Shown piece by piece: positions 45,786 to 62,779 of a stretch of 64,000 nt of DNA. Within the stretch, counting starts at the first letter, position 1. Every line of letters begins with the position of its first letter. A model generated the notes under the pieces. It saw only the letters and a list, made by a program, of their open reading frames with translations, was not told where the DNA came from and searched no databases. A program made the position numbers and the translations under genes. The DNA is taken from the NCBI GenBank assembly GCA_041739995.1, contig JBGSMV010000029.1, positions 1 to 64,000 of the forward strand, written 5' to 3'. This stretch comes from Bdellovibrionota bacterium (GTDB lineage Bacteria > Bdellovibrionota_C > UBA2361 > JBGSMV01).

Positions 45786-46589
45786 CTACATGCCCGCCGC
45801 AGCATAGAGACGTAGCCCCTTAGACCAGAGCACTCTCGCGGTGATGGCGGCGATAAGCAGCCAAAGTACAGTCATTAATGCGGCATCATGAAATGTAACC
45901 GAACTGCTGCCCATGCAGAGCTGTACGGGAATGAAAGTGAGATAGGGGAAAGGTGTATACCAAAGAAATTCCAAAACCTTTGGCGGGAAAAGATCAAGTG
46001 GAATTATGGCTCCGGACAAGAAACGAGCAACCATCGTGAACAAAACTCTTAACACCCAGGATTCTTCAATCCAAAATGACGAGCTCGAGAGTAAAAACCA
46101 GACGCAGAACCAGAGCAGGCTCACCAATAGAGCCATGCTGCCCCCTGCGGCGAGGTGAGTCAGGGATTCGAGGGGGAGGATTCCCGAACCGAAACCAATC
46201 ACCAGTACGATTAAGGCGCTCAGACAGTTTAGAATTTGAGCGGCGCTAAAAGCCCCAAAGTGGTAGCCCATGAAACTAGTTGGATACAGCAAGAATGCCG
46301 AGATTCTACCAAAGCGAATATCCTCGGAGATATTGCGGCTCGCATACGATTGACACAGCAGTGTGACGACCAGCACGTAGGTCTGGTACTCAAGCATTCT
46401 TTCAAAGGTGTACCCCCGCAATAACTCATTGTCGCGAGCTGCAAAAATCGAGTACCAAAGGTTAATCTTAATCAAAAAGAAGACCAGGGCGGGCCCAAGA
46501 ATAAGAAGAAGGAAGTTGAGTTTGTATGCGAGCTGAGAGGCGAGCTCTATGCGAATCGTGCCCCAATACTTTGAAAAAAGCTTCTTCAT
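45786..46589 (-). CDS. ABC-2 family (DUF990-like) permease
   Basis: ISEDIRFGRIS.FLLYP and LSGAIIPLDLFP motifs; ends GLRLYAAAG. Confidence 0.88.
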   Translation of the reverse strand: MKKLFSKYWGTIRIELASQLAYKLNFLLLILGPALVFFLIKINLWYSIFAARDNELLRGYTFERMLEYQTYVLVVTLLCQSYASRNISEDIRFGRISAFLLYPTSFMGYHFGAFSAAQILNCLSALIVLVIGFGSGILPLESLTHLAAGGSMALLVSLLWFCVWFLLSSSSFWIEESWVLRVLFTMVARFLSGAIIPLDLFPPKVLEFLWYTPFPYLTFIPVQLCMGSSSVTFHDAALMTVLWLLIAAITARVLWSKGLRLYAAAGM

Positions 46590-47581
46590 GCGGAAGGGGA
46601 CAAAAGTTGAGGGTTTGAAAGAATCGAATGCATCACTCGCTCCACCGGAATTTGCTCGGTGCCAAAGTCAGTGACGGGGTAGCGTTCAAGGATTTGTTGC
46701 ATAGTGCTCCTCAGCGCGTTTTCAGGGATGCGGAGTTCAACGTGGGTGCGTTCAGGGTCCCAATCTGGCTCAAACGGCACGAAGAAAGTGTCTTCAACTG
46801 AGATAGCTGAGGCGAAGGAGACAGAAAGAAATTTTTCGGAACCGAGAAGTCTTTGAAATTTTGAGAGTTCACCATCGAAGCGTTTCTCTCCTCCGAGAAT
46901 AAGCACCACTCGGTCGCATAGCGCTTCGACATCTGCCATATAGTGGGAAGTGAGTATGATGGTGGTGCCTCGCTCTTTGTGGAAGTTGAGCAGAAACTGC
47001 CTAATTGAAACCTGGGCCACCACGTCGAGGCCAATGGTAGGTTCATCGAGAAATACTACTTTGGGATCATGGAGCAGTGAAGCCATGAGCTCCACTTTCA
47101 TGCGCTCACCCAGAGATAGCTTGCGCACGTGAGTTCTCAGTACGTGATTAACGCCAAGAAGCGTCCCAAGTTCATCCACGCGTTGGTTGAAATTCTGGCG
47201 AGAGATCTCGTAATAGGCACGTAAGAGCTCCAGCGAATCGAGGGCGGGGATGTCCCACCACAGCTGAGACTTTTGCCCCATGACGAGAGCAATCCGTCGG
47301 CGGAATTCCTTAGCACGCGCGAAGGGGTCGCACCCAAGTACTTGCAGGCGTCCATCGCTTGGCATGATAAGGCCGCTCAGCATCTTCATTAGCGTGGTTT
47401 TGCCGGCGCCATTTGGACCAAGAAGACCGAGGAGCTCTCCTTCACGAACAGAAAATGAAAAATCTCGCACGGCAGATATTTCGTTATACTCGCGTGAAGC
47501 AAAGCTCTTGAGAGAGCCAAGGATTCCAGGATCCTTTTTGTATATCTTGAATCGTTTAGTGAGAGCTTCGCAGTGAATCAT
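46586..47581 (-). CDS. ABC transporter ATP-binding protein
   Basis: GPNGAGKT, VMGQKSQLWWD, LSLGERMK, FLDEPTIGLD, TSHYMAD; probable start MIHCE at 47581. Confidence 0.93.
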   Translation of the reverse strand: MIHCEALTKRFKIYKKDPGILGSLKSFASREYNEISAVRDFSFSVREGELLGLLGPNGAGKTTLMKMLSGLIMPSDGRLQVLGCDPFARAKEFRRRIALVMGQKSQLWWDIPALDSLELLRAYYEISRQNFNQRVDELGTLLGVNHVLRTHVRKLSLGERMKVELMASLLHDPKVVFLDEPTIGLDVVAQVSIRQFLLNFHKERGTTIILTSHYMADVEALCDRVVLILGGEKRFDGELSKFQRLLGSEKFLSVSFASAISVEDTFFVPFEPDWDPERTHVELRIPENALRSTMQQILERYPVTDFGTEQIPVERVMHSILSNPQLLSPSA

Positions 47582-47759
47582 AGGGCGTTGAAACGTGTGG
47601 TTATTACGTCGCAGTCTACTTAAATCATTATTTATCGACAGGGCTACTCTTCGTGGAAATCGAGAGGCTCGATATGGACTACTCAGGCTTGGTCTGGCGC
47701 GACCTCGAGCTCGCCTTACTTCGATAATTCTCAAGTATTTGGGATTTCAAGTTTTAGCC

Positions 47760-47990
47760 TTCTGGCGCTACAATCCCCTCTCAAAGCCACTTGAGAGGGA
47801 GGATGCCAAAGCCAGGCGCTCCTATGGAGCGCTTCCTCTTGTCAGCGCCTTGCTTCGACTTTTCTTGTGAGTTTTTTGGCTCATGAGGGACGAAAGAGGG
47901 TCCGTCGAAGTCAGACGTCTAACCGGCCCGTTGATTGGGCAACATTTCTCTTTGGCATCCTTCGTCTTCGGTTTGCCTCGGCGCCCTGGA
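47760..47990 (+). ncRNA. candidate structured ncRNA upstream of the RT
   Basis: 12-bp perfect inverted repeat 47800-47811/47950-47961; hairpins 47776-47799 and 47814-47834; stem cttcgac/gtcgaag 47853-47910 enclosing two further hairpins. Confidence 0.45.
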
Positions 47991-49306
47991 CTAAAACTCA
48001 ATCGCGGATTTTTCAAGAGCTTTTTCATAGAGAGATGGAGATGTCCCCGAATTTTCCGGACTGGAGATTAGTTCGTCGCACCTTAGATCACGAATGGTCC
48101 GGTAAGCGACTTCGACTCCGGGAGCAAGATTCTGAGGGGATGACTCGGCAGGAATTTTTTCGCTTTCGACACCGCTTATTAGAAGGTTCGATACGGCAGA
48201 TTCGGACCAAGACGTTTGAGCCCGCAGTGGCAAGGCCTTTCACTATCTTCGTCGATAAGCCCCGAGTTGTTTTCCGTTTTCGATGGATTGACCACTTCTG
48301 GATGGACTACCTTGGATTCTTGCTTCGTGACAAGGCCGAGGAGATCTTGAGTGACGCGGTAGTGAGCTTTCGCACGGGGCGAGGAGTGCATACCGCCTTT
48401 GAGCGCCTTCGTCCGCTCTTTGCGGATCCATCACGCGGTGATTTATTTGTATTGCGACGAGATGTTCAGAACTATGGCCCCTCTATGGACCACCGTAGAA
48501 TGCAAAACATATTTCGCTCTATAGTTCCGTCAGCTCCCTTGCTTGAGCACTTGTTCTCGAAATTCTGCTCTTTCCAGTATTTAGAGGGAGAGCAGTGTGT
48601 GGTGAATGCTTCTGGTCTGCCAGCCGGGAGCCAGCTTCAAACCGCTTTTGACAATTTGTACCTGCATGAGTTGGATCACCAACTCGATAAAATGGACGAT
48701 GCGGTATACGTTAGATTTGGGGACGACATACTTTTCGCAACCACCTCACTGCAGAGAGCGCTTGACGCTAAGCGCCGCATCTCAGAATTCTTTTTAGCCG
48801 CACAGCTCGTGCCAAACGAAAAGAAGTGCCAAGATTTTGTCATCACGCGCACCGTAAAAAAATCTACCAGCCAGAAAGAATTCACGCCGGCACAAATATT
48901 CCCCTATCTCGGCATGCTGATCGATATGCGAGGAGATGCGTACCTTCCAAGACAGAAGATGAAAAAAATTACTACCTTTCTTAAGGCGCAGCTAAAAATG
49001 GCCTTGGGGCCCTCAGCGGGTAGCGGAGATAAGAATGTTGGTTTTGAAGCCATTCAGGTAGTCAAACATGTTCTCGGAGGCGGCCTGCTCAGTGGGGAAA
49101 ATCCATTGCTTCATTATCTGCCGTTGATGAGAAATGAAAAACAGCTTCGTGCGCTTGATCGATGGATCGCAACGGCAGTTATCTCAGCAGTGCATGGAGG
49201 AGGATTTAAGAAGTCATTCTTTCGGTCAACCTCGTTCTCTGAACTAAGAGAAATGGGGCTTCCGTCTCTTGTCCACATGCGCCGAGTCGGGAATCGTCAG
49301 CGATGA
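47867..49306 (+). CDS. stand-alone group-II-like reverse transcriptase with atypical active site (probable start ATG 48035/48041)
   Basis: RT0-7 in order: QDSEGMT, SDAVVSFRTGRGVHTA, RRDVQNYGPSMDH, GLPAGSQLQTAFDNLYLHELD, YVRFGDDILF, LVPNEKK, FPYLG; X/thumb-like LRALDRWI...LREMGLPSL. Confidence 0.9.
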   Translation: MSFLAHEGRKRVRRSQTSNRPVDWATFLFGILRLRFASAPWTKTQSRIFQELFHREMEMSPNFPDWRLVRRTLDHEWSGKRLRLREQDSEGMTRQEFFRFRHRLLEGSIRQIRTKTFEPAVARPFTIFVDKPRVVFRFRWIDHFWMDYLGFLLRDKAEEILSDAVVSFRTGRGVHTAFERLRPLFADPSRGDLFVLRRDVQNYGPSMDHRRMQNIFRSIVPSAPLLEHLFSKFCSFQYLEGEQCVVNASGLPAGSQLQTAFDNLYLHELDHQLDKMDDAVYVRFGDDILFATTSLQRALDAKRRISEFFLAAQLVPNEKKCQDFVITRTVKKSTSQKEFTPAQIFPYLGMLIDMRGDAYLPRQKMKKITTFLKAQLKMALGPSAGSGDKNVGFEAIQVVKHVLGGGLLSGENPLLHYLPLMRNEKQLRALDRWIATAVISAVHGGGFKKSFFRSTSFSELREMGLPSLVHMRRVGNRQR

Positions 49307-51534
49307 GCCTTTTTCAACCGCGAAGTTCTCGATTCCAACGTTTTGATAGAGAAACCGCGGAAATTTTAAGCGATCCTCACCCCCGAGCACCTCTGCAAGT
49401 GCTTATTAGGTTGGTGTGTTCTCAGCGCAACTATATTTTTTGGCACGTGACGTTCTTGGCGCTGCACTTTGCTGAGCTATTGGTACTCGCACTCATTCAT
49501 CGCATTTACTTTCCCCCAGAATCGCTGCTGCTATTGAGGGTCTGCTCCACGGTTTCGCTTATCGCGGTTATTGCTTCCTGTAGTGCGAGACTATCACAGT
49601 CGTTTAGTGACAGTGATGCGGAGAGAGGGGGTGGCCCGGACGCATGGCGCGTGGCGCGACTCCTCTTTCAGAGCACATTGTTGTTAATGCTCGCCCTTGC
49701 AGTTTGCGTATACCTTTCGCGTGACGCTAATTTTGCAAGTCCGCCAATTTTCCGGGCCTTGGTATTTTCTATCTTCATCACACTGCCCTTTGATTGCATG
49801 CTTAACTTCATTTTTCTCAATCAGAGGGCATTCTCAAGGCTGATTCATCGCCGTCATCTGAGAACAATCACCCTACTTGGCGACCTAGTTTCTTTGTGGT
49901 GCGTGTATACTGACCAGCCAGTGTTGTGCCTACTGTCGCGCACGCTGCCTCGTCTCTGGGCGGCCCTAGCGGTTTGGAAAGATGTGACGGGGTTCACTGT
50001 ATCTCGCCTATTTGAAGCACGCCTATTTGCCGACGCATCGGAGCGAAAGTCGGCAGTTTATCTGATTCAAACCTCTGGCCCAGCGGTGGCGTGCGCCGGG
50101 CTGATGGAGGTGTCTCTATACTGGAGCCTCTGGTTGTTGAACCGTGGGGTGGAGGGGGCGGCGCTCTTGATATTCTGTAGTCACAAGATCGTGCATCTGG
50201 GGCATCTGGTGTCGTTGAGACTCGGGATGCGACAGAGCGCGATGTTTGATGCCGCTGATGTGAGAGTGGGTACGCAAATGGGATTAGCGTTTTTACGGCG
50301 CTGGGGACTCGTGATGCTCGCGAGCATCTTGGTGGCCATTCTCTTCAGTCCCATGTTGTTGCTGCAGAAGGAGGTGGTGTTGTGGAGTTCTCACCTAGGC
50401 GAGTCCTTCGGATGGTCTCTTGCGGTGGGGCTATCCGTGCTTGCACTGACGGGAGCGCGTATTTGCACGCACGGATTAGTCACCATGGCAGCTTTGAGGC
50501 TAAGGCGTTGGCGAGAGTGCCTTCCGGTCATCATATGGATGTTGTTTGTGGGTTCCGTCTTGAGTTGGCTCACGCGCAGCGTGCTCGTTCACGAGGAGAT
50601 GGAACAAACGCTGATCTCACTTTCAAGCGCTGAGGCTTTGCTCAACCTTGGATTCCTGTGGTGTGTGGCCTGGCTGCTCATGCGAGAGCTTCGCCTGTCA
50701 CACGCGGCTCTTAAGAGAGGTGCTTCGATTAGGTTCTTAGAGGAGTTTGAGCGCGACCTCACGAAACCTTCCGACTCCGTTTGTCTTGTGTATGTAAAGA
50801 CCAGCGGAAAACTACAGAAGCCACTACTGGAAGTCGTCACTCCAGCGGAAAAGGACGGCCTTAAGCCTTTTGCGTGCTTCTCCATTATCGGCAACCAGTC
50901 ACTAATGCTTCTTCGTGCGTCCCGACCTTTGGGTAAGGTAAGGATAAGGCAGTCACTTGCTCGCTGCCTCGCGGGTGGTATTGAAGAGTTGCGGATTTTG
51001 AAATCCGAAGTAGCCGACTACCACGAGTTATTCCCCTTTGGGGTAAGTTCTGAATCGGTCACACGCTGGCTGGTCGATCTTTTGCGTCAGGGCAAACCTG
51101 AGCCTACTCTGTCGGAGGAAGAACGTGAGCGCCTAGATTTCATTTGCGAGACCGCCTTTGGCACTTCGAGGGCTACAGAGGCGGCTATGGTGCCCGGATT
51201 TGTGGTCGCAAGTGCCGCTGAAAAATGGGACCTGTCACACATATCAGAGCGAGATTTACGCAAGCAAATCGTGCGATATGGCAAGCGCCTGATTGAACGT
51301 GATCTGGTATGGAATCCAATCCCGCTATGGAAAGGTGAATTTAGGGGATTTGTTCACCTCGTTCGTAATGGAGAGGTGGTAAGGATCCTTTGGTTTGACG
51401 CCAGCCTAAGAAGTCTCAAGCCGCACATCGAAAACGCGGCCCTCGTGAGAAGTTTCGTGGAGCTCTTCTCGGCGTTTGGAGCGGCAGAACGAATGCAGCA
51501 GAACCCGCCGGAACTATCTGAGGAGTTGAGATGA
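49303..51534 (+). CDS. polytopic membrane protein (~12 TM, MOP/flippase-like topology) with C-terminal soluble domain
   Basis: About 12 hydrophobic segments in two halves over ~460 aa, then ~280 aa soluble; ATGA overlaps at both ends. The family is inferred from topology only. Confidence 0.7.
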   Translation: MSLFQPRSSRFQRFDRETAEILSDPHPRAPLQVLIRLVCSQRNYIFWHVTFLALHFAELLVLALIHRIYFPPESLLLLRVCSTVSLIAVIASCSARLSQSFSDSDAERGGGPDAWRVARLLFQSTLLLMLALAVCVYLSRDANFASPPIFRALVFSIFITLPFDCMLNFIFLNQRAFSRLIHRRHLRTITLLGDLVSLWCVYTDQPVLCLLSRTLPRLWAALAVWKDVTGFTVSRLFEARLFADASERKSAVYLIQTSGPAVACAGLMEVSLYWSLWLLNRGVEGAALLIFCSHKIVHLGHLVSLRLGMRQSAMFDAADVRVGTQMGLAFLRRWGLVMLASILVAILFSPMLLLQKEVVLWSSHLGESFGWSLAVGLSVLALTGARICTHGLVTMAALRLRRWRECLPVIIWMLFVGSVLSWLTRSVLVHEEMEQTLISLSSAEALLNLGFLWCVAWLLMRELRLSHAALKRGASIRFLEEFERDLTKPSDSVCLVYVKTSGKLQKPLLEVVTPAEKDGLKPFACFSIIGNQSLMLLRASRPLGKVRIRQSLARCLAGGIEELRILKSEVADYHELFPFGVSSESVTRWLVDLLRQGKPEPTLSEEERERLDFICETAFGTSRATEAAMVPGFVVASAAEKWDLSHISERDLRKQIVRYGKRLIERDLVWNPIPLWKGEFRGFVHLVRNGEVVRILWFDASLRSLKPHIENAALVRSFVELFSAFGAAERMQQNPPELSEELR

Positions 51535-53681
51535 AGAGTCCCCCAAGTTGGATAATCTTGAGGGTGATAGCTCGGTGCCAAACGGCGCTGAGTAGGATCT
51601 TCGTGCCATTTCTGCTCGCGCTTTTGTTGCTCATTACAAGTGCGCTCGTTTTTGAAGGGCCGCTTCGTCGCCAATTTCCCCATAGGGCAGCGCGAATGAG
51701 CTGGGAAATTGACGGCATGAGTATTGAGATTTTCCGCTCGCGGGAATCCCGTTATTTTCCAGAAATGCGGTACTCACCGATGCATATCACCGTTCCATTT
51801 TCTCAGACTCCGCGTGGATGTGAGTTCGTGTATGGGGCCGTGGTGTATAGATATCACCAGCAAAGCGATCGTCTGATCGAACAACCCAGGTATCTTACCA
51901 AGTTTCGATATAATCTCGAGCGTGGGCGCTGTGAGTCGAAAGATCTCTTCATTATTGATGGAGAGACTCCTTTCGACATGGATGTTCAACTTGTTGATGT
52001 CGAGCTTTCAGGCGAAGAAATAATCGAGATGCCTAGGCCTGAAGGATTACGGATTATAGCCTTGAGTCCAGAAGAAGTTCGGGTAGCTAAACAGGTTATT
52101 CCAGCGCAAGAACCTTTTCGACGACCACAATTCACCAAGCGAATTTCGAAATTTTCTGCCAATCTCGACGCAGGTGAGGCCGAGATGCTTGTGGCGCCTT
52201 ACGATCAGGTTAAGCCTCTGATCTTGTCGGAGATTCGGGCGCTGATCGAACGTTGCAAGAGCAGCGGGCAAAGCAACGCGCAGTGTTCTTCTGCCCCGGG
52301 TTCGTCCATCCGCGGCGCAATTGCCGAGATTCTTGATCCGGATATCTCAGATGCAATGGAGGACGCACGTGCTGCAGGCATAGACGTTGATGTGCTCACC
52401 AACTACCGCGCACAAGCAGAGACGTCGCAGCTTGTGACGCTCGATCACGGCAAACTACGTGGCGTCACCGCTAGGTTCGATGGGCCGAGCCCTTGGATGT
52501 GGCTGCGTTTGAACCCGCATTCATTAGTGCTCAAGCTGCCAATGCATACAAAGTTTATTATCATCGGCGACTCCTTCGTATTAAGCACGAATGCCAATTT
52601 CAACTTCATGTTCACCGAAAGTAGTCGCGAAGTAACGATGGTGTATCGAAGCCCGACAGTGGTGCAGATGTTTGACGACTTGCTCGCGCAGATCCGTACT
52701 TCAGTGTATCGCCCGCTTGATGTCGATCTTCGAGATAACTTTCTTCTGCTATTCAATGCGGATCGGCCAAGGGGCTACTCAGTGACGGATCAAAAGTCTT
52801 ACGTCCCGATTAATACTAATGAAGGTGTCAGATCGAGTGCGTACGGCATTTTGCTCGAGCTTCTCGCGCGGTCAACGGGTGAGGTTGTGCTCGCCATGTC
52901 CCCCATCTCTGACGCTTGTGATACCTATCGTCGTCGGCACTGTTTGTTCGACATTCTTTCGCGGCGTGCAGGTATTGGTATGTTCCGCCTATTCATGAAT
53001 GGCTACTTCTATTTTAGCGAGGAGGTGGGAGGCCTTGATGAGTGGCGCTATGCGGCGCGTCGGTATCAAGAAGAGTTTCAGAATCGGTTTCGTGCCGTCA
53101 GGAAGATTTTTTCTGAAACTAGTGAGGATGGTCTCTCGATTTTTATGCAAAAGGGCAATTCCTACAGCCTCCATCACGAGCGCTTAGGTCTCGTGGGGGA
53201 TGATTGGGTCCTGGCAGGGTCCGCGAACCTTGGCCAAAAGGGGACACTGAATGTGATGGAACTATTGAGAAGCCCTGTCCTCATGGAGAAGGTAAAGAGC
53301 GAGGTAGCGACGTTTGATGAGCCATACTTTGTTTCCCATGCCCATGAGTGGACTCCGGAGGAGAAAGAATATCGAAATTGTGAGTTCACCTTTGAGCGCG
53401 AGCTGCTTCATTGGAGAGAGTATAAACTTAAACGCTTTCAGCGTAGCGAGGTCATTTCAGAATTGAAACGTAAGTACGGAGTCGAAGCACCCGGGACATT
53501 ATTTCTGGTGTCTCCGGCCTTTGATCCGAGGCCGGATGATGGAGTTCGCTATTTCAAGGATGTGGGAGAAAAGGTCGTCGAACTAGAGGAAGTTTTTACA
53601 AGCCTTTCAAGTTATCTCTGCATCCAGGACAGTGCGGGGCAAAGCTATGTCGTCAATGTTCAAGCGTCTGCTGGAGACTAG
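51531..53681 (+). CDS. membrane-anchored phospholipase D-superfamily protein with variant HKD motifs
   Basis: N-terminal TM; PLD-type ILDPDISDAMEDARAAGIDVDVL; HTKFIIIGD...TNANF; HERLGLVGD...GSANL. Confidence 0.8.
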   Translation: MKSPPSWIILRVIARCQTALSRIFVPFLLALLLLITSALVFEGPLRRQFPHRAARMSWEIDGMSIEIFRSRESRYFPEMRYSPMHITVPFSQTPRGCEFVYGAVVYRYHQQSDRLIEQPRYLTKFRYNLERGRCESKDLFIIDGETPFDMDVQLVDVELSGEEIIEMPRPEGLRIIALSPEEVRVAKQVIPAQEPFRRPQFTKRISKFSANLDAGEAEMLVAPYDQVKPLILSEIRALIERCKSSGQSNAQCSSAPGSSIRGAIAEILDPDISDAMEDARAAGIDVDVLTNYRAQAETSQLVTLDHGKLRGVTARFDGPSPWMWLRLNPHSLVLKLPMHTKFIIIGDSFVLSTNANFNFMFTESSREVTMVYRSPTVVQMFDDLLAQIRTSVYRPLDVDLRDNFLLLFNADRPRGYSVTDQKSYVPINTNEGVRSSAYGILLELLARSTGEVVLAMSPISDACDTYRRRHCLFDILSRRAGIGMFRLFMNGYFYFSEEVGGLDEWRYAARRYQEEFQNRFRAVRKIFSETSEDGLSIFMQKGNSYSLHHERLGLVGDDWVLAGSANLGQKGTLNVMELLRSPVLMEKVKSEVATFDEPYFVSHAHEWTPEEKEYRNCEFTFERELLHWREYKLKRFQRSEVISELKRKYGVEAPGTLFLVSPAFDPRPDDGVRYFKDVGEKVVELEEVFTSLSSYLCIQDSAGQSYVVNVQASAGD

Positions 53682-59728: not shown

Positions 59729-62700
59729 ATGATAGGTCCCTCAGAATCAGCGGCATCAGATGCCACGGATGGCTTGCTATCCTCCCAGGCTGCCGAATCC
59801 AAAGAGTTCTCTAAGTTCCCTGGGGAAGGTTCTCGGGTAACTGAAAGCGGCACTAGTGACGCATTGGACGCTCTTATAGCCCCTTCAAAGGGCGCGCTCG
59901 AAGCTCCGGCGTTACCTGGGAAAGTGCCTTTGGGGAAGGTCGCAGAGCACCTAGAGAAATTTATCAAAGAGGCACTTAAGGACTCTGACCATCAACCGCT
60001 GGGGGTGCTTGATGAATCCCTCAAGGAGCTTTCTAAGTTGCTCGGCTCAAGCGGAGAAGACGATGATATTCCCACAAAAGGTCTGAAAATTTCATATCGA
60101 CTGGGGCACCTATCTGAACTTAGTTCGGTCGACCGCCGGCGTTCAGTCAAAGCTCTGTGGGCCTGCGCGCTGAGTGGAAGTCGCCTGTCGCCGGAAATGC
60201 GAGCCGTGCTGTCCCGAATGCAGAATGTACTCGCACCTGACGAGAAAGAATCGCTGGCGAAGTGGCTCTATAACGTATCTAAGGGCGATGCTGAAGGAGA
60301 AAATGGAATCACTGCGGTGATTGGAGAAAGTGGACGTTTGCAAGCACGGAAGTTGTTGGAGATTGTATTGGAAGGGTGCAAAACGCTTACCGAATTACGA
60401 GCGGTAGTAGATGGAGTTGGAAAGCGAAATCTGATCGCGTTACGCGAACGTCCAATATCCGAGTTTGTGGCCGTTCGAGTTCTTGGATCTCGGATGCGCG
60501 AATGGCGCAAGTTCTCGATCACAGCTCCGATGCAAGCTCGTTCTATAAAGCGAGGAGGCTTTCTCAAAGAAAAAGCTCCGGCGCCAGTGGCGCAGCGCAG
60601 ACTCAAAAGTATTGCTGAAGAGCTCGATCTGAGAAGAAAAGCTCTTTCTGAGAACGGTCGCTTTGCGCGCTCTCAAGCCTACAAGAGCTACATGGCGATT
60701 CTAGACAAGAATGAACAGTACCTACGCAGTGAGCGTAGAAGGTGCAAAAGCACTAAAGACCGAGTTGCGCTAGCAAATTTACTTACGGCCACGATGGCGG
60801 TGGAGTTCAAGTATAATTTGAGACTTACTGTGGAGCGTGATGGAGCCGGCAAGCCTAAGTGTCGATGGACGGAAAGTTGGGTGCGCGACGTTGGGGCAGC
60901 TCTGGGCGGTCTTCCCGAGATGTTGATAATCGCTACACCGAAGCTCAGACAAGTGCGCCTAATCGAGGCATTCAAGGATGGTTCCTATGGGCAACGAAAG
61001 AGTAATGGTCTCGTAGAGCTTTCTTCCGACGCGGTGGGTGCGGAGTCACGCGATAAAATGGCGGGGCATGTGAGATTTGCGCGTTCCCTCATCACTCATG
61101 AAGTCGGTCACAGCATTTTTTATGGGAAGGCCGGCTGGGGGGGTGCGAAGTCAAAGGAGAATGTTGAAGAGCTCGGTCGTAAGAGCTCGCCGAAATTTGA
61201 TTTTCGAGGATTTCTTGAAATAGCAGGATGGAACGTGATCTCGCCGGACCGTTGGAAGCTCGATCAATCGCAAGAGTTGGTCACGGTGGATGGAGAACCT
61301 CAGCGCCTTATGAGACCTGTGCGCCTAAAGGGATCTAGTAGCGACGTGATTTTGTCTTATCAAGGTGAAGATCGCACTCTATATAGCTTTTCCAAACCTG
61401 AGGGGCTTCCGTCCAGTAGTTATGGTGCCGCGGATCCCTTTGAGGACCTTGCCGAAGGCTTTGTTGAATACCGCTATGCTCCGCATCGACTGATAAAAAT
61501 TGCGCCATGGAAATTTCTGTGGTTTGAAGGCGAATTGGGGCTCTACGAAGTCTCCTCAGGGAAAGACTCTAGTGTGCGAGAGGCTCTCTCAGTGAAACTT
61601 CCCGGTCTTTTCCCGCCCCGTCGGGATTTAGCGACGAAGCCGCTTGCCGAGCTTACCTTAGATCGTGTTTCCACTAGTGCCTCGGAGATCCAGTCTCTGG
61701 TTTTGCCCCGTCGAGATATCAAGGCTCTGCCAGTATCCGAAGCCCAGGTCGGGCATTTTTGCTGGAAGGTTTTTAGGGAGGGAGGCGAGATTGAGGCAAG
61801 ACTCACGTCGCCGATGGCTCCTCCTAGTTCGCGTGAAGGCAGCAGTGAAATCATAACGGTTCCAAACCTGCGCCTATCGGAAACCCAGACCATGACCCTG
61901 CTGTTGCTTGGTTTGCGCGGAGCCTCCCAGACTATCCCAGGAGATCCCATCCCCGAACATTCGAGAGTGTTGAACCTTTTGAATTGGGTAGAGGCGCGTA
62001 AAATTCCGTGGAGCTCCCCGTTAGCGGCGAACAAAGTTGAGCTCTCCGCCCATTTGCTAGAGATTATCGGAGATTCCGAGGGACGAGCGTTTTGGGATAG
62101 GCATCTTCGAAGCACTGAAGTGCTGCCGGGTATTATTTCTGTCCGTTGCGCGAATAGTGAGTTGCTTGCATCTGCCTTCTGTAGATTGCAAGAGCACTAT
62201 GAGGGGCCACATTTTCACGGAAAGGTATTCTCCTTAGACGAGTATAAGCAGTGGTATCGCAAGGAGGCCAAGGCCGGGGTCTTTTCCTACTATGAGGATT
62301 GGGGTGGTTTTAACGTACCCCGAGCAGCAGTACTGAGCTTTTTAGACGGGGAGTTCCCGAATCTTCGAGTAAGGGAAGAGAGTCTGTTGGCGAGGGCGAC
62401 GCAGAACAAAGATGCTTCTTACCTTATCGGTGTTCCGGAGGGTCAGGAGGAGCAGGAAACCTTCAATCACGAGCTAAGCCATGCGCTGTGGGCGACCAAT
62501 GAATCTTATCGCGAAGAAGCTGGTCGAATTGTTAAGGCTCTACCTTTGGAGAGTTTCCGTAGGTGGTTGATTGAGAGTGGATATTGCGATCAGGTGTTGG
62601 ATGACGAGTGCGCGGCCCACCTAGTGGATGAGGCGTCGCCGTTCTCGCACTTAACATCTGCTAGATGCGCTAATGTTTCGGCCAAAGATCGAAAGAGGGT

Positions 62701-62779
62701 GCGAGAAGGTCATCTGGAGATCGAGCAACTATTCTCGCGGTATTCTACGGGAGCCTGGGAGCGGCACGCTTCGATTTGA
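59729..62779 (+). CDS. large orphan protein with two HExxH zincin-like motifs
   Basis: ITHEVGHS with downstream YGAADPFEDLAEGF; a second motif FNHELSHA with downstream DE; S-rich N-terminus. Confidence 0.65.
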   Translation: MIGPSESAASDATDGLLSSQAAESKEFSKFPGEGSRVTESGTSDALDALIAPSKGALEAPALPGKVPLGKVAEHLEKFIKEALKDSDHQPLGVLDESLKELSKLLGSSGEDDDIPTKGLKISYRLGHLSELSSVDRRRSVKALWACALSGSRLSPEMRAVLSRMQNVLAPDEKESLAKWLYNVSKGDAEGENGITAVIGESGRLQARKLLEIVLEGCKTLTELRAVVDGVGKRNLIALRERPISEFVAVRVLGSRMREWRKFSITAPMQARSIKRGGFLKEKAPAPVAQRRLKSIAEELDLRRKALSENGRFARSQAYKSYMAILDKNEQYLRSERRRCKSTKDRVALANLLTATMAVEFKYNLRLTVERDGAGKPKCRWTESWVRDVGAALGGLPEMLIIATPKLRQVRLIEAFKDGSYGQRKSNGLVELSSDAVGAESRDKMAGHVRFARSLITHEVGHSIFYGKAGWGGAKSKENVEELGRKSSPKFDFRGFLEIAGWNVISPDRWKLDQSQELVTVDGEPQRLMRPVRLKGSSSDVILSYQGEDRTLYSFSKPEGLPSSSYGAADPFEDLAEGFVEYRYAPHRLIKIAPWKFLWFEGELGLYEVSSGKDSSVREALSVKLPGLFPPRRDLATKPLAELTLDRVSTSASEIQSLVLPRRDIKALPVSEAQVGHFCWKVFREGGEIEARLTSPMAPPSSREGSSEIITVPNLRLSETQTMTLLLLGLRGASQTIPGDPIPEHSRVLNLLNWVEARKIPWSSPLAANKVELSAHLLEIIGDSEGRAFWDRHLRSTEVLPGIISVRCANSELLASAFCRLQEHYEGPHFHGKVFSLDEYKQWYRKEAKAGVFSYYEDWGGFNVPRAAVLSFLDGEFPNLRVREESLLARATQNKDASYLIGVPEGQEEQETFNHELSHALWATNESYREEAGRIVKALPLESFRRWLIESGYCDQVLDDECAAHLVDEASPFSHLTSARCANVSAKDRKRVREGHLEIEQLFSRYSTGAWERHASI

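Follow-up and report, generated by a model that had tools for sequence, protein, structure and literature searches.

The window analysed here is a stretch of 64,000 nucleotides (nt) from a Bdellovibrionota bacterium (contig JBGSMV010000029.1 of assembly GCA_041739995.1). Within it, a 453-nt gap separating two divergent genes houses the subject of this work, a structured RNA element of 166 nt located immediately upstream of a reverse transcriptase (RT) gene. The RT gene is followed by overlapping genes for a polytopic membrane protein and a PLD-like protein, and the divergent minus-strand neighbour encodes an ABC-transporter ATPase. The longest open reading frame (ORF) of the ATPase gene spans 46586-47734, although, judged from the sequence, ATG 47581 is a likelier start. 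The features of the locus are as follows, where A7 denotes the seven-sequence alignment described below.

47769..47774, plus strand: -10-like hexamer TACAAT, by inspection of the sequence a possible promoter of the RNA
47776..47799, plus strand: hairpin P0, 9 perfect base pairs (bp) with a 6-nt loop (arms 47776-84 and 47791-99), adjoining P1; repeat search and minimum free energy (MFE) fold
47798..47963, plus strand: core structured RNA, 166 nt, in the order P1-P2-J2/3-P3(P3a,P3b)-J3/4-P4-J4/1-P1'; fold, homology and covariation
47798..47811, plus strand: 5' arm of the closing stem P1, 14 bp with 47950-63
47814..47834, plus strand: hairpin P2, 9 bp with a UAU loop and a conserved YC just 5'; MFE fold and A7
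47835..47840, plus strand: J2/3, CCUCUU, the proposed 5' strand of a pseudoknot; complement of AAGAGG at 47894-99
47852..47911, plus strand: three-way junction P3, with stem 47852-59 / 47904-11, P3a 47864-87 and P3b 47888-903; MFE fold
47892..47899, plus strand: P3b loop GAAAGAGG, its 3' six bases being the proposed second pseudoknot strand; A7 and pairing test
47912..47925, plus strand: single strand J3/4 with a conserved UAAU-type motif (here UAAC, 47920-23); A7 columns 202-205
47926..47940, plus strand: hairpin P4; MFE fold and A7
47941..47949, plus strand: single strand J4/1, AACAUUUCU, with a CAA/ACA-type motif directly 5' of P1'; alignments
47950..47963, plus strand: 3' arm of P1; repeat search and A7
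48035..49306, plus strand: RT, 423 amino acids (aa), or 421 aa from 48041; Pfam RVT_1, RT_UG26, Drt9, FGDD
49303..51534, plus strand: polytopic membrane protein, 743 aa, its start overlapping the RT stop codon
51531..53681, plus strand: PLD-like protein, 716 aa, with an N-terminal membrane anchor; PLDc_2 1.1e-12

Fold of the leader RNA

A first-pass annotation of this DNA had pointed out a long-range inverted repeat and several hairpins in the leader, and these proved to be as it described them. The sequences AGGATGCCAAAG (47800-11) and CTTTGGCATCCT (47950-61) form a perfect 12-nt inverted repeat, which extends to 18 nt at 89% (47794-811 / 47950-67) and, allowing one G.U pair, gives the 14-bp helix P1 (47798-811 / 47950-63). 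The hairpins at 47776-99 and 47814-34 and the branched stem are found in the MFE fold, in which P2, the P3 junction with its two inner hairpins, and P4 are all present. No equivalent of P0 was seen in the six related loci of A7, and thus this hairpin is specific to the window.

The folding energies were compared with those of shuffled sequences. The 445-nt leader folds at z = -3.1, a value equalled by none of 100 shuffles, and the 166-nt core (MFE -75.7 kcal/mol) folds at z = -5.4, equalled by none of 200. The opposite strand of the core folds comparably (z = -5.96) and therefore folding energy alone cannot choose the strand. Of 820 dinucleotide shuffles of homologous leaders, 1.0% contained a perfect long-range helix of at least 12 bp, as did 6 of 1500 windows of 450 nt taken at random from the same genome; the repeat is thus uncommon, yet alone not decisive. 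Rfam searches gave nothing relevant over the window region (one chance match of E 0.6 lies within the RT gene) and no match over nine related loci.

Three further observations concern the sequence of the RNA. P3a (10 bp, 47864-87) has a U-rich apex with six consecutive U's at 47872-77. J3/4 contains at 47914-47921 the self-complementary octamer AGACGUCU, part of a palindrome that could permit RNA dimerisation; the octamer is not kept in relatives. A U-run stands directly 3' of P1' in some related loci (L002:1071-1085, L115:1065-1075, L003, L008 and L026, where L numbers are our locus identifiers); such a run after the closing stem looks like a terminator and may indicate where the RNA ends on its 3' side. 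The window has merely a U-rich stretch at this place (47964-47975).

Conservation and covariation in related loci

Loci with homologous RT genes were gathered for comparison: 33 came from species-representative genomes, 80, of 183 relatives found, from metagenomes, and a further 16 from 124 genomes of the window's own phylum. Fourteen of these 124 genomes, the window's included, have an RT match at E<=1e-10. BLAST of the window leader against 48 homologous upstream regions gave only chance matches of 11-15 nt. Each of the close relatives has a long-range helix of 10-13 bp in the same place and of different sequence.

A covariance model built from the window sequence and fold only, with no hand alignment (R1), was searched against 52,335 bases from 13 loci. 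Its top two matches, L115:919-1064 (E 7e-4) and L118:2856-3006 (E 1.3e-3), lie immediately 5' of the RT on the RT strand, and across the 64-kb window its sole match was 47798-47963. A second model made from three sequences (R2) was searched against 92,563 bases from 16 loci. The top four matches, L002:873-1070 (2e-5), L128:1176-1308 (5e-5), L117:1177-1366 (7e-4) and L119:1222-1361 (0.03), were again all immediately 5' of the RT on the RT strand; the next match had E 0.45. The window and these six loci (L115, L118, L002, L117, L128 and L119) make up the alignment A7. The element lies 6-71 nt before the RT start and is on the same strand in all seven, and the three-way layout of P3 was model-aligned in the six relatives.

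Standard pairs occupy 95.8% of the 259 pair cells of A7, versus 66.3% in column shuffles and 40-48% when the pairing partners were slid. Changes on both sides were seen in 42 of the 47 pairs, a count reached by none of 500 shuffles. By helix, 9 of the 10 modelled P1 pairs, 8 of the 9 P2 pairs (C16 is invariant) and all five P4 pairs change on both sides, two or three sequences being gapped at each P4 pair. The base of P3 is an invariant G.U pair, which would be an A-C mismatch on the opposite strand and so supports the RT-sense strand. These data show that RNA shape, not sequence, is kept 5' of related RT genes, and they uphold in part the first-pass proposal of a cognate template or primer RNA for a non-retron RT, namely that the leader encodes a structured RNA belonging to such an RT, since homologous RTs are preceded by a fold that is conserved and covaries.

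All seven RNAs have a pyrimidine linker directly after P2 that is complementary to the 3' part of the purine-rich P3b loop (8-10 nt), suggesting a pseudoknot. In the window CCUCUU (47835-40) is perfectly complementary to AAGAGG (47894-99), and across the other loci the partners covary (CUCCUG/CAGGAG, CUCUUC/GAAGGG, CUCUUC/GAAGAG, CCCCUU/AAGGGG and UCUGCUUU/AGAGCAGG). Cognate J2/3-P3b pairings score at least 5.5 in all seven loci (mean 6.07); for non-cognate combinations the mean is 4.54, and 19% score 5.5 or higher. In four of the seven loci no other segment of the RNA pairs with the linker as well as the P3b loop does; in the remaining three, 3-6 of about 100 windows pair with the linker as well or better. 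Note that the CU-rich and GA-rich compositions of the two strands bias this test, which makes it weaker than the helix counts.

Among the unpaired bases, conservation is strongest at the C before P2, two linker positions, the terminal G's of the P3b loop (G178 kept in six and G179 in all seven sequences) and the UAAU-type motif of J3/4, columns 202-205 of which are identical in six or seven of the seven. The J3/4 motif is a candidate template or RT-contact site. An AAY trinucleotide stands on both sides of P4 in several sequences (AAC/AAC in the window and AAU/AAU in L115, L117 and L119), and L002 has AAU on the J4/1 side only. As a single covarying event, this recurrence is only a lead.

The first-pass annotation had held that RT similarity begins only after Met 48035 or 48041, and the homologues agree: they align from about residue 3-30 of the RT, and the database entry for the protein (421 aa) begins at 48041. 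In five of the seven loci even the longest possible RT ORF begins 3' of the RNA, and in L117, L118 and L119 stops interrupt every one of the six frames of the P1-enclosed domain. Neither the 91-aa ORF at 47595-47870, which has no Pfam match, nor an RT extension from GTG 47867 is thus conserved coding sequence. On these sequence grounds we take the leader element to be noncoding.

The RT family and its partner genes

Pfam recognises only a weak RVT_1 domain in the window RT. The top two named PADLOC profiles are RT_UG26 (4.9e-26, profile positions 68-257 of 398) and Drt9 (3.3e-20, 70 bits over positions 76-320 of 488), and each is matched by all 60 of the top family members tested, with Drt9 ranking second in every one of them. 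The best RT_UG26 match in the family has E 1.2e-42, and in some members the match spans the full profile (26-391 of 398 in L008, 60-388 of 398 in L144). The scores are low nonetheless, 54-106 bits overall and about 95-106 bits for the full-profile members. For the window RT the PADLOC profile RT_UG17 gave 1.7e-12 and the retron profile RT_II-A 6.3e-9. Among the NCBIfam models retron_St85_RT scored 30.6 bits (cutoff 235), Drt2 36.7 bits (cutoff 390) and the group II intron model TIGR04416 55.8 bits (cutoff 300), and Drt3a was far below its cutoff.

When the family profile was compared with solved structures, the lowest E values were those of group II intron-type RT cores (6ar1, 7.7e-34, profile positions 31-270). 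The match of longest coverage was the DRT9 RT 9ioa, which has the same sequence as 9nlv and 9nlx (3.7e-29, positions 49-391); DRT2 gave 7e-16 and retron RTs 1e-8 to 1e-10. Because UG26 and DRT9 are the best matches and the retron models fall far below cutoff, we assign the window RT from its sequence to the class-2 UG/Abi type, near UG26 and UG28, and not to the retron RTs. A group II intron was considered and set aside on the TIGR04416 score and the absence of an Rfam intron match.

The catalytic FGDD motif is invariant in the family. A C-terminal motif, GLPSLxHxRR (residues 405-417, 49240-49290), is nearly invariant, with G408, L409 and S411 kept in at least 90%. The tail of the window RT contains no tyrosine; the conserved serine could conceivably serve for priming, as the C-terminal tyrosines do in DRT9.

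A word-based protein search returned three RT relatives only. In an exhaustive search the number of cluster representatives was 1594 for E<=1e-3, 366 for E<=1e-10 and 44 for E<=1e-30. The family at E<=1e-10 is spread over genomes labelled Myxococcota, Acidobacteriota, Bdellovibrionales, Coxiellaceae and Rickettsiales. Viral contigs contained distant RTs only, with 18-33% identity over parts.

The closest RTs (29-35% identity) come from genomes of the window's own order, and in these the three-gene operon is kept. In the window its genes overlap, the 743-aa gene overlapping the RT stop codon on its 5' side and the PLD-like gene on its 3' side. A homologue of the membrane protein occupies the same position in four of the five extended subclade loci (blastp E 4e-27 to 1e-3), and the same four have a homologue of the PLD-like protein (blastp E 1e-109 to 2e-63); in the fifth the genes are laid out alike, with no match by blastp. 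The gene order RT, polytopic membrane protein, PLD-like protein is therefore a conserved operon in the window's subclade. One genome of the window's family (G066) contains two complete copies of the system on C8 (L144) and C74 (L145), each with RNA, RT, membrane protein and PLD; the RTs are 35% and 34% identical to that of the window.

The 743-aa protein has 7-14 hydrophobic segments within its first ~450 aa. It has no match in Pfam, PADLOC or NCBIfam, a word-based homologue search returned only the protein itself, and its AlphaFold model is poor (mean pLDDT 50.9). An Atlas lead to a MurJ/MATE-like flippase scored just 0.76 and was not relied on. The PLD-like protein has a single hydrophobic segment, which is N-terminal. 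H339/K341 (the canonical HxK) and H549 are invariant in its family, H549 in an H-x-E context. Its residues 545-585 (window 53160-53290) form a second HKD-like motif, H-x-E...GSANL rather than H-x-K, and the protein thus has one canonical and one variant half-site, both kept in six homologues.

In the wider RT family, nearly all full-length homologues have 3' of the RT an overlapping or adjacent ORF of 650-700 aa without a Pfam family. The hydropathy of this partner resembles that of the window's 743-aa protein, with hydrophobic segments in the first ~450 residues and a soluble tail. The partner profile A3 matched the subclade membrane protein A8 weakly and at the N terminus (probability 35%, E 4e-4), and it matched neither the PLD family nor P0002 as a single sequence. 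A long closing stem also lies upstream of the more distant RTs (23-31% identity), with its 3' arm mostly ending 20-80 nt before the RT start. A perfect helix of at least 10 bp was found upstream of the RT in 19 of 41 loci, versus 9.3% of 820 shuffles; seven loci were excluded from the count, two for lacking upstream DNA and five as duplicates (two) or near-duplicates (three). The stem encloses a hairpin right after the 5' arm and a conserved hairpin of the type GAGAY-UGCG-GUCUY. Of 34 loci, 23 have upstream a relaxed form of the latter, RRNY-YGMG-GNYY; its density there is 2.35 per kb, versus 0.17 per kb elsewhere in the loci.

A purely sequence-based alignment of six Acidobacteriota-type loci gave 62 pairs, 20 of them with compensatory changes. 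A MAFFT alignment of 14 wider-family elements, inconsistent with the structure at its ends, was left out of the counts. The subclade and the wider family both have a CAA/ACA-rich strand 5' of the 3' arm of the closing stem. Given these sequence features we regard the presence of a closing-stem RNA 5' of the RT as a trait of the whole family.

A different, shorter RT type (336-396 aa; L041, L046, L048, L057, L067, L070, L087, L091, L104 and L106) has the conserved hairpin GCUGA-UGCG-UCAGC about 175-240 nt upstream of the RT match, with the same UGCG loop as the wider family. In PADLOC this type matches best the generic 'RT' profile PDLC01136 (about 1e-46 to 1e-52).

Around the RT operon the window encodes M16 peptidases, two-component proteins, an Fpg glycosylase and a TenA-like enzyme, all of them housekeeping functions. 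A 1016-aa ORF at 59729-62779 has no Pfam family in an otherwise ordinary neighbourhood. A search of sequencing runs for the locus returned no RNA run. Contigs covering the locus in four DNA runs of one study were identical to the window with no variants, and thus offered no natural compensatory changes to use.

Comparison with known systems and interpretation

According to the cited passages, the characterised class-2 UG/Abi RTs use neighbouring ncRNA (noncoding RNA) templates (PMC12632851, PMC9226505), the ncRNA acting both as a scaffold and as a reiteratively copied template that is bounded by stems (PMC9226505, PMC12632851, 10.64898/2026.10.08.757509, PMC12483538, 10.1101/2024.05.08.593200). 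The general arrangement of this class, a stand-alone UG/Abi-lineage RT domain beside a conserved structured ncRNA, is also that of the window.

DRT9 is described as an RT plus an ncRNA (PMC12483538, PMC12489045). Its UG28 RT has a structured ncRNA directly 5', as here, and is the closest solved relative with a near full-length alignment. However, the window RT is not in UG28, its Drt9 profile match ranks below RT_UG26, and the DRT9 structure is nearest but distant. DRT9 ncRNAs are reported in the cited passages to have a universally conserved poly-U template (PMC12483538), whereas A7 has no conserved U-tract. Two large membrane-associated proteins follow the window RT, and the C-terminal priming tyrosines of DRT9 are absent from its tail. 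A DRT9-like poly-U template is therefore not supported: A7 has no conserved U-run block, and the U-run of the window sits in P3a, the sequence and length of which vary among relatives, so it is probably no template of that type.

In DRT2 the basal stem of the ncRNA is described as abutting the copied region, with short ACA motifs at the stem (10.1101/2024.05.08.593200), and the RNA as pseudoknotted (PMC12039810). The window RNA resembles it in lying upstream, in the ACA motifs at the stem and in its proposed pseudoknot, and its P1 would be the basal stem next to a copied region. Unlike DRT2, the window RT is not UG2 (the Drt2 score, 36.7 bits against a cutoff of 390, is weak) and separate effector genes are present. 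A DRT2-like endless ORF ('neo') was considered and is not supported, given the six-frame stops in L117, L118 and L119.

DRT10 is given as a UG17 RT, an ncRNA and a SLATT membrane effector, with stem-loops setting the template boundaries (PMC12632851, 10.64898/2026.10.08.757509). It shares with the window a three-part logic of class-2 RT, structured ncRNA and membrane protein, but RT_UG17 matches the window RT only at 1.7e-12, the partner is a polytopic protein of 650-760 aa rather than a SLATT protein of two to three transmembrane segments, and there is an extra PLD-like protein. Neither Pfam nor PADLOC gave a SLATT match for the window partner proteins. UG26 is the best-scoring named profile for the window RT and 60 of 60 relatives, although the scores are low and the window RT matches profile positions 68-257 only. 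The cited passages of Mestre et al. 2022 (PMC9226505) give UG26 35 members, sometimes beside a YcjD/Vsr-like endonuclease, and describe no ncRNA or membrane partner there.

The likeness to retrons is one of form only: a long inverted repeat of a1/a2 form (12-14 bp) closes a structured RNA just 5' of the RT, but the RT belongs to another clade and there is no retron profile or Rfam match. A likeness to telomerase is topological. The ingredients of a telomerase RNA core are a core-enclosing helix, a pseudoknot and single-stranded segments bounded by helices; these match the window RNA, whereas the order of the elements differs. The class-2 UG/Abi RT clade has been argued to be the nearest to TERT (PMC12632851). 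Literature searches turned up no ncRNA for UG26-like RTs, no class-2 RT operon with a polytopic membrane protein plus PLD, and no account of the RNA or partner proteins of the present family. A class-2 UG/Abi RT with an adjacent ncRNA is a known kind of system; the present RNA architecture and gene set appear new.

From the conserved and covarying fold, its fixed position and strand relative to the RT, the class of the RT and the conserved operon, we consider it probable that the 166-nt element is the structured ncRNA partner of the RT in a DRT-type system, where it would serve its cognate enzyme as scaffold or template. By analogy with the characterised systems we infer the following course. 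The element would be transcribed in the RT sense as a discrete RNA from just upstream of P1, where TACAAT is a -10 candidate. TANNNT-type hexamers end 6-7 nt 5' of P1 in L118, L002 and L117, and L115 (GATAAT) and L119 have similar hexamers; L128 showed none. The RNA would fold to the P1-closed, pseudoknotted core and bind the RT as a scaffold, as in DRT2, DRT9 and DRT10. The RT would then repeatedly copy a short internal template bounded by helices, which may be the conserved single strand J3/4 or J4/1, around P4, and during phage infection the DNA product would activate the membrane protein and PLD-like enzyme of the operon. A more specific version is doubtful, though worth stating: a four-part DRT-type system made up of a pseudoknotted ncRNA with telomerase-core-like ingredients, a UG26/DRT9-related RT, the polytopic membrane protein and the membrane-anchored PLD, in which the RT reiterates a short template around P4, flanked by the AAY repeats, and tandem-repeat DNA gates the membrane and PLD effectors.

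Several points weigh against an ncRNA partner of this kind. A7 comprises seven sequences only, L002 and L117 have P1 and P2 sequences in common, and the alignment was fitted by the model, which biases the pair counts towards structure. R2 run with whole-genome filters over the 124 genomes found just its three training loci, one copy per genome, and missed weaker members; the single copies show no spurious spread but limited sensitivity. Tested against the wider-family RNA, R2 gave none of five core loci below E 0.4 (the L004 element had E 6.6). The window element lacks the tetraloop hairpin of the wider family, leaving homology of the subclade and wider-family RNA types unproven. A search of the sequence for a template identified none, A7 having no conserved U-tract or stop-free frame. 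TACAAT at 47769-74 is a weak -10 candidate, and a simple sigma-70 scan gave no promoter there. By the gene annotation of the window, the neighbourhood of the RT operon is no defence island.

The conserved structure could instead be a cis-acting 5' leader of the RT operon, serving translational or transcriptional control, perhaps RT autoregulation, and not copied into DNA. A leader of this sort would account for an element that, in each of the seven loci, sits on the RT strand 6-71 nt ahead of the RT start, and for the terminator- or attenuator-like U-runs after P1' in L002, L115, L003, L008 and L026, and it fits with no template having been identified. We nevertheless think it unlikely, since the elaborate fold, with its three-way junction, pseudoknot and conserved single strands, matches the template ncRNAs of the nearest characterised RTs, and the ribosome-binding site and start codon lie outside the conserved structure.

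The first-pass description of the leader as retron-like holds for the closing stem and fails for the RT. Were the system a retron, the stem would be the a1/a2 pairing of an msr-msd RNA and the RT would make branched msDNA, and a 12-14-bp inverted repeat enclosing a structured region immediately 5' of the RT is indeed the retron layout. We regard this as very improbable given RT_II-A at 6.3e-9 versus RT_UG26 at 4.9e-26, retron_St85_RT at 30.6 bits versus a cutoff of 235, solved retron RTs at 1e-8 to 1e-10 versus DRT9 at 3.7e-29, and no Rfam match. Moreover, a pseudoknot and a three-way junction are not known as retron features, and the basal stem of DRT2 and other class-2 RNAs is the closer analogy. 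Chance inverted repeats, or a coding region (an RT extension from GTG 47867 or the 91-aa ORF), are barely credible: the RT frame is open from 47867 and also across the element in L002, and the reverse strand folds equally well (z = -5.96), but chance is opposed by the covariance-model matches and covariation, and coding by homologous RTs that start at the equivalent of 48035-41, a longest RT ORF 3' of the element in five of seven loci, six-frame stops in three of seven and a 91-aa ORF without a Pfam match.

The solved class-2 UG/Abi RT-ncRNA systems each make DNA differently: DRT2 a gene, DRT9 poly-dA and DRT10 telomere-like repeats. The RT family described here is sizeable, with its 366 cluster representatives at E<=1e-10, and since the RNA is defined, with testable helices and a pseudoknot, and the operon is conserved, the system is directly testable. 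The enclosing helix and pseudoknot of its RNA bear on the proposed link of class-2 UG/Abi RTs with telomerase.

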